Assembly (NCBI RefSeq): GCF_055900595.2
Contig: NZ_CM148325.1
Length of the DNA stretch: 64,000 nt
Direction: 5' to 3' (one strand)
Under the pieces are notes generated by a model. It was not told the DNA's origin and did not search any database. It worked only from the letters and a program-made list of their open reading frames with translations. The translations under genes and the position numbers were made by a program. Shown here in pieces: positions 54,347 through 54,463 of this stretch; the stretch's first letter is position 1; every line of letters starts with the position of its first letter.

Positions 54347-54432
54347 TAGACTGGCCCCCTGAATCTCCTGCGTTTGAAGGACAGTAACAGGTTAAGTGAT
54401 AACAGATGTATGAAAATATAGAGATACATCCA
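54347..54432. repeat. IS2-derived miniature: IS2 left IR (22 bp) joined to a diverged IS2 right-IR-like sequence, no transposase
   Basis: tagactggccccctgaatctcc ... gttaagtgataacagatgtatgaaaatatagagatacatcca versus IS2 ends at 31619..31640 and 30311..30352. Confidence 0.55.
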
Positions 54433-54437
54433 AGGAA

Positions 54438-54463
54438 GAGCCACTTTTGCGCCGTTCGTGACA
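54438..54463. repeat. Second solo IS21-type IR-like copy (gagccacttttgcgccgttcgtgaca)
   Basis: About 80% identical to the copy at 35272..35297. Confidence 0.45.

Follow-up and report, generated by a model that had tools for sequence, protein, structure and literature searches.

The 86-bp unit at positions 54347–54432 of the window, which comprises 64,000 nucleotides of contig NZ_CM148325.1 (RefSeq assembly GCF_055900595.2), is very probably an immobile fossil, left by a single ancient IS2-family insertion that lost its interior by deletion. Judging from its sequence, it would represent a deletion scar whose copies arose passively, a familiar class of object rather than a new mobile element. 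Immobility is suggested by the anatomy of its ends, by its flanks, and by its decay. The unit, hereafter called the stub, carries no ORF and consists of IS2 positions 1–22 fused to the terminal 64 bp from a relative of IS2, which comprise a 22-nt remnant of the transposase C terminus and the right inverted repeat (IRR). This agrees with the original prediction of an IS2-derived miniature of about 86 bp that retains both termini and lacks a transposase.

The reference for aligning the unit was the full-length IS2 of 1330 bp that lies in the same window (30311–31640, minus strand), which was identified by direct reading, is bounded by the target duplication GTGAT, and is a potential source of transposase. 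At the left end of the stub (54347–54368, plus strand), residues 1–22 of the 42-residue IS2 left inverted repeat (IRL) are preserved with 22 of 22 matches, just as predicted. This 22-mer, TAGACTGGCCCCCTGAATCTCC, occurs at exactly two sites in the window, the second being the left end of the full-length IS2 (31619–31640, minus strand), and no match was obtained in 100 shuffles of the sequence. The adjoining segment (54369–54390, plus strand) does have the length of 22 bp originally given for a spacer, but it is not filler. It aligns (13/22) to the IS2 sequence immediately inside the IRR, and its in-frame translation, LRLKDSNRLSDNRCMKI followed by a stop, is the counterpart of the IS2 OrfB C terminus, with the frame running into the IRR. 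Therefore, the former spacer is a 3′ remnant of an IS2-like orfB and not foreign DNA. Because this tail matches IS2 at just 13 of 22 positions, the parent is considered to be a relative of IS2.

The remainder of the unit (54391–54432, plus strand) is a decayed IS2-type IRR, which upholds the predicted diverged right repeat. Whereas IS2 ends comprise a 42-bp IRL and a 41-bp IRR, the stub has a truncated IRL and an IRR of full length that matches the IS2 IRR at 36 of 42 positions, several of the six substitutions falling in the terminal cleavage domain. Sister copies at two other loci (L003 and L005) are nearer to IS2 in the IRR region than the window copy is, and therefore the window IRR is the derived state. 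Thus, the unit shares with IS2 (IS3 family, IS2 group) both termini in the same orientation and an orfB stop codon inside the IRR. In contrast to an autonomous IS2, it lacks the programmed-frameshift orfA/orfB transposase, of which just the final 17 codons of an orfB-like frame persist, as well as 5-bp duplications, since GCGGT flanks it on the left and AGGAA on the right. The unit is an internal-deletion derivative of an IS2 relative from which positions 23 to about 1266 are gone. RefSeq annotation places no feature over the stub in two loci identical to that of the window (L001 and L002).

The stub lies in a chromosomal genomic island of Escherichia coli that adjoins fabI and is found mostly in poultry isolates. 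A locus identical to that of the window is present in 28 of 5,426 complete E. coli genomes. The gene order is a ROK regulator, a yebF-family pseudogene, the stub, a partial IS3-family transposase, an AbgT transporter, and an S6 (SPATE) peptidase. The pseudogene (53916–54215, plus strand), which contains an internal stop and is placed by the RefSeq annotation of L001 and L002 (offset 41799), is the conserved left neighbor of the stub. Between the two lies a unique, non-IS left flank (54216–54346), which has no significant similarity to the ends of IS2 or ISEc38 when judged against shuffled sequences. At least the last 22 bp of this flank are present beside every stub copy read, as an eight-locus alignment shows. 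The possibility that its terminal portion, 54301–54346 (TGTCATAACG...GTTCTTAGCGG), is a decayed ISEc38/IS100 or IS2 end, which would have placed the stub within a mini-ISL3 element, was rejected. Local alignments to IS2 and ISEc38 ends were no better than those of shuffled sequences, at least 138 of 1000 of which scored as high, and we treated a 17-nt inverted match at 76% as chance.

Together with its right neighbor, the 117-bp segment under study (54347–54463) preserves four nested IS remnants: an IS2 relative in an ISEc38 tip in an IS100 tip in an IS3-family element. A single unassigned A at 54433 separates the IRR from a probable 9-bp ISEc38-type (ISL3 family) terminal-repeat tip on the minus strand (54434–54442), which reads GGCTCTTCC, or GGAAGAGCC on the plus strand. 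GGCTCTTCC is the canonical tip of the ISL3-family repeat, and annotated ISEc38 copies also end in tips of this type. The ISEc38 terminal repeat starts with GGYTCTTCCGCAAC, of which just these nine nucleotides are left next to the IS2-type IRR, and the body of the element is gone. Directly outside is a 21-bp IS100 (IS21 family) left-end-type tip on the minus strand (54443–54463; TGTCACGAACGGCGCAAAAGT, or ACTTTTGCGCCGTTCGTGACA on the plus strand), which matches the IS100 IRL (30287–30307) at 19 of 21 positions and the IS100 IRR at 15 of 21. Taken together, the two tips (54434–54463) match the annotated right end of an ISEc38 composite in locus L008 at 28 of 30 positions. Beyond TGACA at 54463, the TGTCA terminus of the IS100-type tip, homology to other loci stops abruptly. 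Compared with IS100/IS100kyp, the tip stops at position 21, before GATCCAC, and is attached to an ISEc38 tip instead of the IS100 interior; the GATCCAC repeats and the istA and istB genes behind the TGTCA tip of an IS100 end are both absent. Finally, 54464–54883 (minus strand) contain the 5′ 420 bp of an IS3-family element, including its left inverted repeat and the start of orfA, cut at the IS100-type tip. Full IS3-family elements carried by plasmids of Pantoea, Salmonella, and Citrobacter are 89.6–90% identical to this piece, which is the partial IS3-family transposase annotated in L002.

The original prediction had described a solo IS21-type inverted repeat at this position. The assignment to the IS21 family stands, but the repeat is better regarded as the outermost 21 bp of an end composed of ISEc38 and IS100 sequence than as solo. 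The 26-mer at 54438–54463 that was reported as an IS21-type motif is present, and its proposed second occurrence at 35272–35297 proved to be similar (20/26) rather than identical. The latter site belongs to an ISEc38-like pseudogene (33983–35297, plus strand) that is left-truncated by IS1 and carries an internal deletion. Its right terminus is likewise composite, with the core tip extending to 35276 and an IS100 IRR-type tip following at 35277–35297 (21/21 to the IS100 IRR). The related IS21 right end reported at 33549–33574 is located correctly and corresponds to the right end of IS100 at 33554–33574. We gave up an early view in which the right flank was an IS21 inverted repeat that an ISL3 tip had entered.

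The distribution of the stub was examined by searching 5,426 complete E. coli genomes with a 53-nt query confined to the deletion junction. Further copies of the ~86-bp unit exist, with the junction present at 111 places in 61 of these genomes, at one to four places per genome and always in the chromosome; the flanking 5-bp duplications that were looked for beside them are absent from the copies read. No PLSDB record covers at least 80% of the unit, a search of GTDB species representatives with two degenerate patterns returned neither the unit nor a full-length parent, and a pattern search of IMG/VR found no unit. Six contigs matched in a metagenome scan, all within the same three contexts described below.

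The copies read, which comprise the window and 18 further loci and cover part of the 111 places, fall into three contexts and derivatives of them. Context 1 is the locus of the window, a ROK-yebF-stub-abgT island. Context 2 is an island adjoining ynjA, where the stub is again just downstream of a yebF-family gene (L005 and L006). In context 3 (L003), the order is iutA, an ISL3 pseudogene, an IS1 fragment, the 22-bp common left flank, the stub, a 10-bp right neighbor, and sitD. Every copy read has the identical deletion junction and shares the left flank, the right flank, or both. Given this same junction and the common flanks, the copies are therefore traced to one ancestral event that was copied by segmental duplication and recombination, and not to independent insertions.

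Comparisons among contexts are informative about the rate of decay. The left flanks of contexts 1 and 2 (53900–54346 in the window, spanning the yebF gene and downstream sequence, versus L005) are 91.1% identical over about 450 bp, whereas the stubs of these contexts are 80.5–81.4% identical. Thus, the stub has diverged about twice as much as the adjacent flank, and the stubs of two contexts have indels in the IRL. Such faster drift accompanied by indels is the behavior of unconstrained DNA. The context 3 stub is 90.8% identical to that of the window, and contexts 1 and 3 have in common 22 bp of left flank and, to the right, the 10-bp ISEc38 tip. In both, 16 shared bases separate the IS100-type tip from the stub. 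The tip is of the left-end type in the window (54443–54463) and of the right-end type next to sitD (L003, 5120–5140), though the junctions are homologous.

Two loci illustrate how additional copies can arise. Strain 135 (L022, NZ_CP080260.1 around 790,911) carries a second, 100%-identical module containing the yebF pseudogene, the stub, the IS3 fragment, abgT, and the S6 peptidase gene. This second module lies elsewhere on the same chromosome, another IS3-family element bounds it on the left, and its abgT and peptidase genes are disrupted. The extra stub copy in this strain is a duplicated yebF-stub-abgT-S6 peptidase module. The second example is strain GF43 (L025, NZ_CP172127.1, 4513–5350), where a hybrid locus has the order ROK-yebF-stub-sitD. 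Its stub carries context 1 SNPs on the left and context 3 SNPs on the right, with the switch occurring within about 8 bp of the 22-bp left repeat. This pattern is that of a homologous crossover inside the stub between a window-type copy and a sitD-type copy. The sole "activity" evident for the stub is that of a short homology patch where recombination joined island modules, as in GF43.

From these arrangements we infer the following order of nested insertions. An IS100-like element would first have entered an IS3-family element, after which an ISEc38-type ISL3 element would have landed between positions 21 and 22 of the IS100 left end. An IS2 relative would then have inserted about 9 bp inside the ISEc38 tip. 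Subsequent deletions would have taken out IS2 positions 23 to about 1266, its interior, along with all DNA to the left of IS2, joining the IS2 left end to the 3′ flank of the yebF-like gene and erasing any target duplication. Without a transposase and with half a left end, the remnant would be expected to drift neutrally, its copies arising via duplication and recombination of the surrounding island modules. Empty sites were also sought, including next to sitD, and none was found. The sitD flank is absent from PLSDB, a sampled ranking of E. coli matches included no stub-less intermediate class, and the sitD flank and stub occur together in 49 E. coli genomes.

Besides the lack of an empty site, two observations count against reading the stub as a fossil. 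First, the IRL-type tip in the window versus the IRR-type tip by sitD is unexplained by a simple single-ancestor history. Second, the two genomes with the ynjA island (L005 and L006) are 99.8% identical over 5.2 kb and then part exactly at the IRR tip, as could result if the right end was used by a transposase after the internal deletion had occurred. Beyond the break, which involves 5195–5650 of L005 and begins at 5184 in L006, the latter runs on into cytochrome b562 and ISEc12.

One alternative, which we consider unlikely, is that the unit itself is immobile but its full-length IRR is still cut or targeted by IS2-family transposases, producing breaks exactly at the IRR tip. Three different right flanks do begin exactly at this point (in the window and L003, in L005, and in L006). 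Moreover, L005 carries a second, inverted IS2 relative (about 71% identical to IS2) some 20 bp away from the tip, and the full IS2 of the window also has its IRR 24 bp from the IS100 IRL tip. However, L005 and L006 differ at four positions that lie close together within the final 30 nt of the IRR, which homologous exchange with an IS2 end would fit equally well, and the formation of IS2 circles requires both ends (PMC3299598). The divergence between these genomes could thus stem from recombination with a different IS2 end or from a transposase still acting on one end.

Considerably less probable is the original proposal that the stub is a MITE-like, non-autonomous IS2 derivative mobilizable in trans, whose termini are recognized by the transposase of full copies (e.g., 30311–31640), allowing the unit to transpose and multiply. 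MITEs occupy many unrelated sites, and each copy has its own target duplication. Like IS-derived MITEs (e.g., MITEEc1, ISfinder), the stub is short and non-coding and has both ends from a known IS. These termini are correctly oriented, the left 22 nt are perfect, a full IS2 resides in the same window, and some genomes carry the stub at up to four places. In contrast to MITEs, it always has the same neighbors: among the loci read, no copy is at an unrelated site with both flanks different, and no context includes a target duplication. A transposing MITE would leave its flanks behind, whereas copies of the stub keep theirs and are therefore descendants of one junction. Duplication and recombination of modules account for the extra copies, and the absence of the unit from the plasmid, GTDB, and IMG/VR collections searched is likewise at odds with an element that multiplies by transposition.

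The ends of the stub also argue against mobilization in trans. For IS2, residues 12–19 of the IRL serve recognition and residues 20–42 provide the anchor for the transposase; minicircles no longer form when a single base is deleted at position 14, 26, or 29 (PMC3299598). The IRL of the stub lacks residues 23–42, which IS2 needs for minicircles, and is therefore probably an incompetent left end, an argument that is built on experiments with IS2 itself and not with its diverged relative. The IRR substitutions in the terminal cleavage domain weigh in the same direction. Given the common junction and flanks, the lack of 5-bp duplications, and the missing IRL residues, the proposal of mobility in trans is already close to refuted. 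A domesticated role as a promoter, terminator, or small RNA for the yebF-like or abgT genes is scarcely credible: two diverged islands do retain the stub on the downstream side of a yebF-like gene, but a promoter and terminator scan of 54347–54463 was empty with region-wide counts at the level of shuffled sequence, there is no Rfam match, the stub changes faster than its flank and has indels, and the adjoining yebF copy is a pseudogene.

As a fossil, the stub is an unannotated scrap of IS2 within an IS graveyard, situated at a module junction of an E. coli island that is mostly poultry-associated, and it carries little biological weight. Nevertheless, it can serve as a lineage marker for the yebF-abgT-S6 peptidase and aerobactin/sit island modules, and it provides a documented case of an 86-bp IS scar that acted as a crossover point between island modules (GF43). 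It also warns against calling a MITE on the strength of two IS ends that lack a transposase.

The composite right flank directs attention to the ends of ISEc38-group elements. Nearly all such ends that were read carry an IS100-type tip outside the GGYTCTTCC terminus, the right end in L036 being an exception. These tips are found on E. coli copies and on a ~74%-identical relative from Klebsiella. They are 21 bp in length and can be of the left- or right-end type, in any combination and in either orientation, as in L008 (1393–1413 and 3136–3156) and in the window composites at 35268–35297 and 54434–54463. Longer, 55-bp pieces of the IS100 right end lie outside ISEc38 in L018 (347–401) and L021. 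DNA outside the composites diverges directly after TGTCA. The two IS100 junctions, between positions 21 and 22 and between positions 55 and 56, both directly precede GATCCAC, and sites with the motif GATCC(A/G)C are located at the former position in both IS100 ends and at the latter position in the right end. The tip-less ISEc38 end in L036 abuts CTGAAAGT followed by GATCCGC within an IS66 gene.

A tentative proposal, the most economical account of these junction sequences but one for which we see somewhat less than an even case, is that ISEc38-type ISL3 elements use an AT-rich 8-mer followed by GATCC(A/G)C in IS100 ends as a specific insertion site, with loss of the IS100 body afterward. The target may have the form NNNNNNNT followed by GATCCRC. 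Insertion and loss of this kind would behead IS100, leaving 21- or 55-bp tips outside the ISL3 element. We also considered that the right flank might represent integral long inverted repeats of ISEc38, and rejected this because targeted insertion better explains both the 55-bp IS100 pieces in L018 and L021 and the L036 junction that lacks a tip. Elements of the ISL3 family generate an 8-bp target repeat. No composite has an 8-bp repeat; a perfect 5-bp repeat (GCTCC) flanks that in L019, and four of five positions match in L018. The IS100 insertion in the window also gave a 5-bp repeat (TTTAG).

The inner junction predicted by targeted insertion was searched with a synthetic query composed of the ISEc38 end, GCAATAGT, and the IS100 interior, and no covering match was obtained in PLSDB. 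A scan of IMG/VR for this junction was empty and is uninformative, as a control scan indicated that ISEc38 itself is essentially absent from that collection. The ISEc38 literature consists of element lists, with nothing on ends or target, and site-specific targeting of IS100 ends by ISEc38 appears to be undescribed. If true, such targeting would account for the solo IS21-type repeats at ISEc38 ends, both in the window (35277–35297 and 54443–54463) and on E. coli and Klebsiella plasmids. The ISL3 family would gain a target-specific member, and it would become clear why orphan IS100 tips recur on plasmids that carry virulence and resistance genes.

Several other insertion sequences in the window are worth recording. 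The IS100 copy (30287–33574, plus strand) is 99.7% identical to elements annotated as "IS21-like element IS100 family," is interrupted by the full IS2, and is itself nested in IS1. Thus, 30282–33579 form a nest three elements deep, with IS100 (target duplication TTTAG) within IS1 and IS2 (GTGAT) within IS100 at position 24 of its left repeat. The right end of this nested IS2 adjoins the IS100 left tip, as does that of the stub (54391–54463; 77.5% identity over 80 bp). Both IS2-family right ends in the window are 24–31 bp from an IS100 left-end-type tip and in the same orientation.

A solo fragment of the IS2 right inverted repeat, originally placed at 44859–44881, is real. The segment 44862–44881 (plus strand) is a 20-bp IRR tip that matches IS2 positions 1311–1330 at 20 of 20 positions. 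It has no IS2 body beside it, and a partial IS3-family pseudogene lies ~270 bp farther on in identical genomes. Finally, the left end of an apparently intact IS21-family element at about 15838–18400 contains GATCAC(N)TTTGGCAT repeated five or six times. This element also truncates ISEc38 in L020 and flanks ISEc38 in L036.
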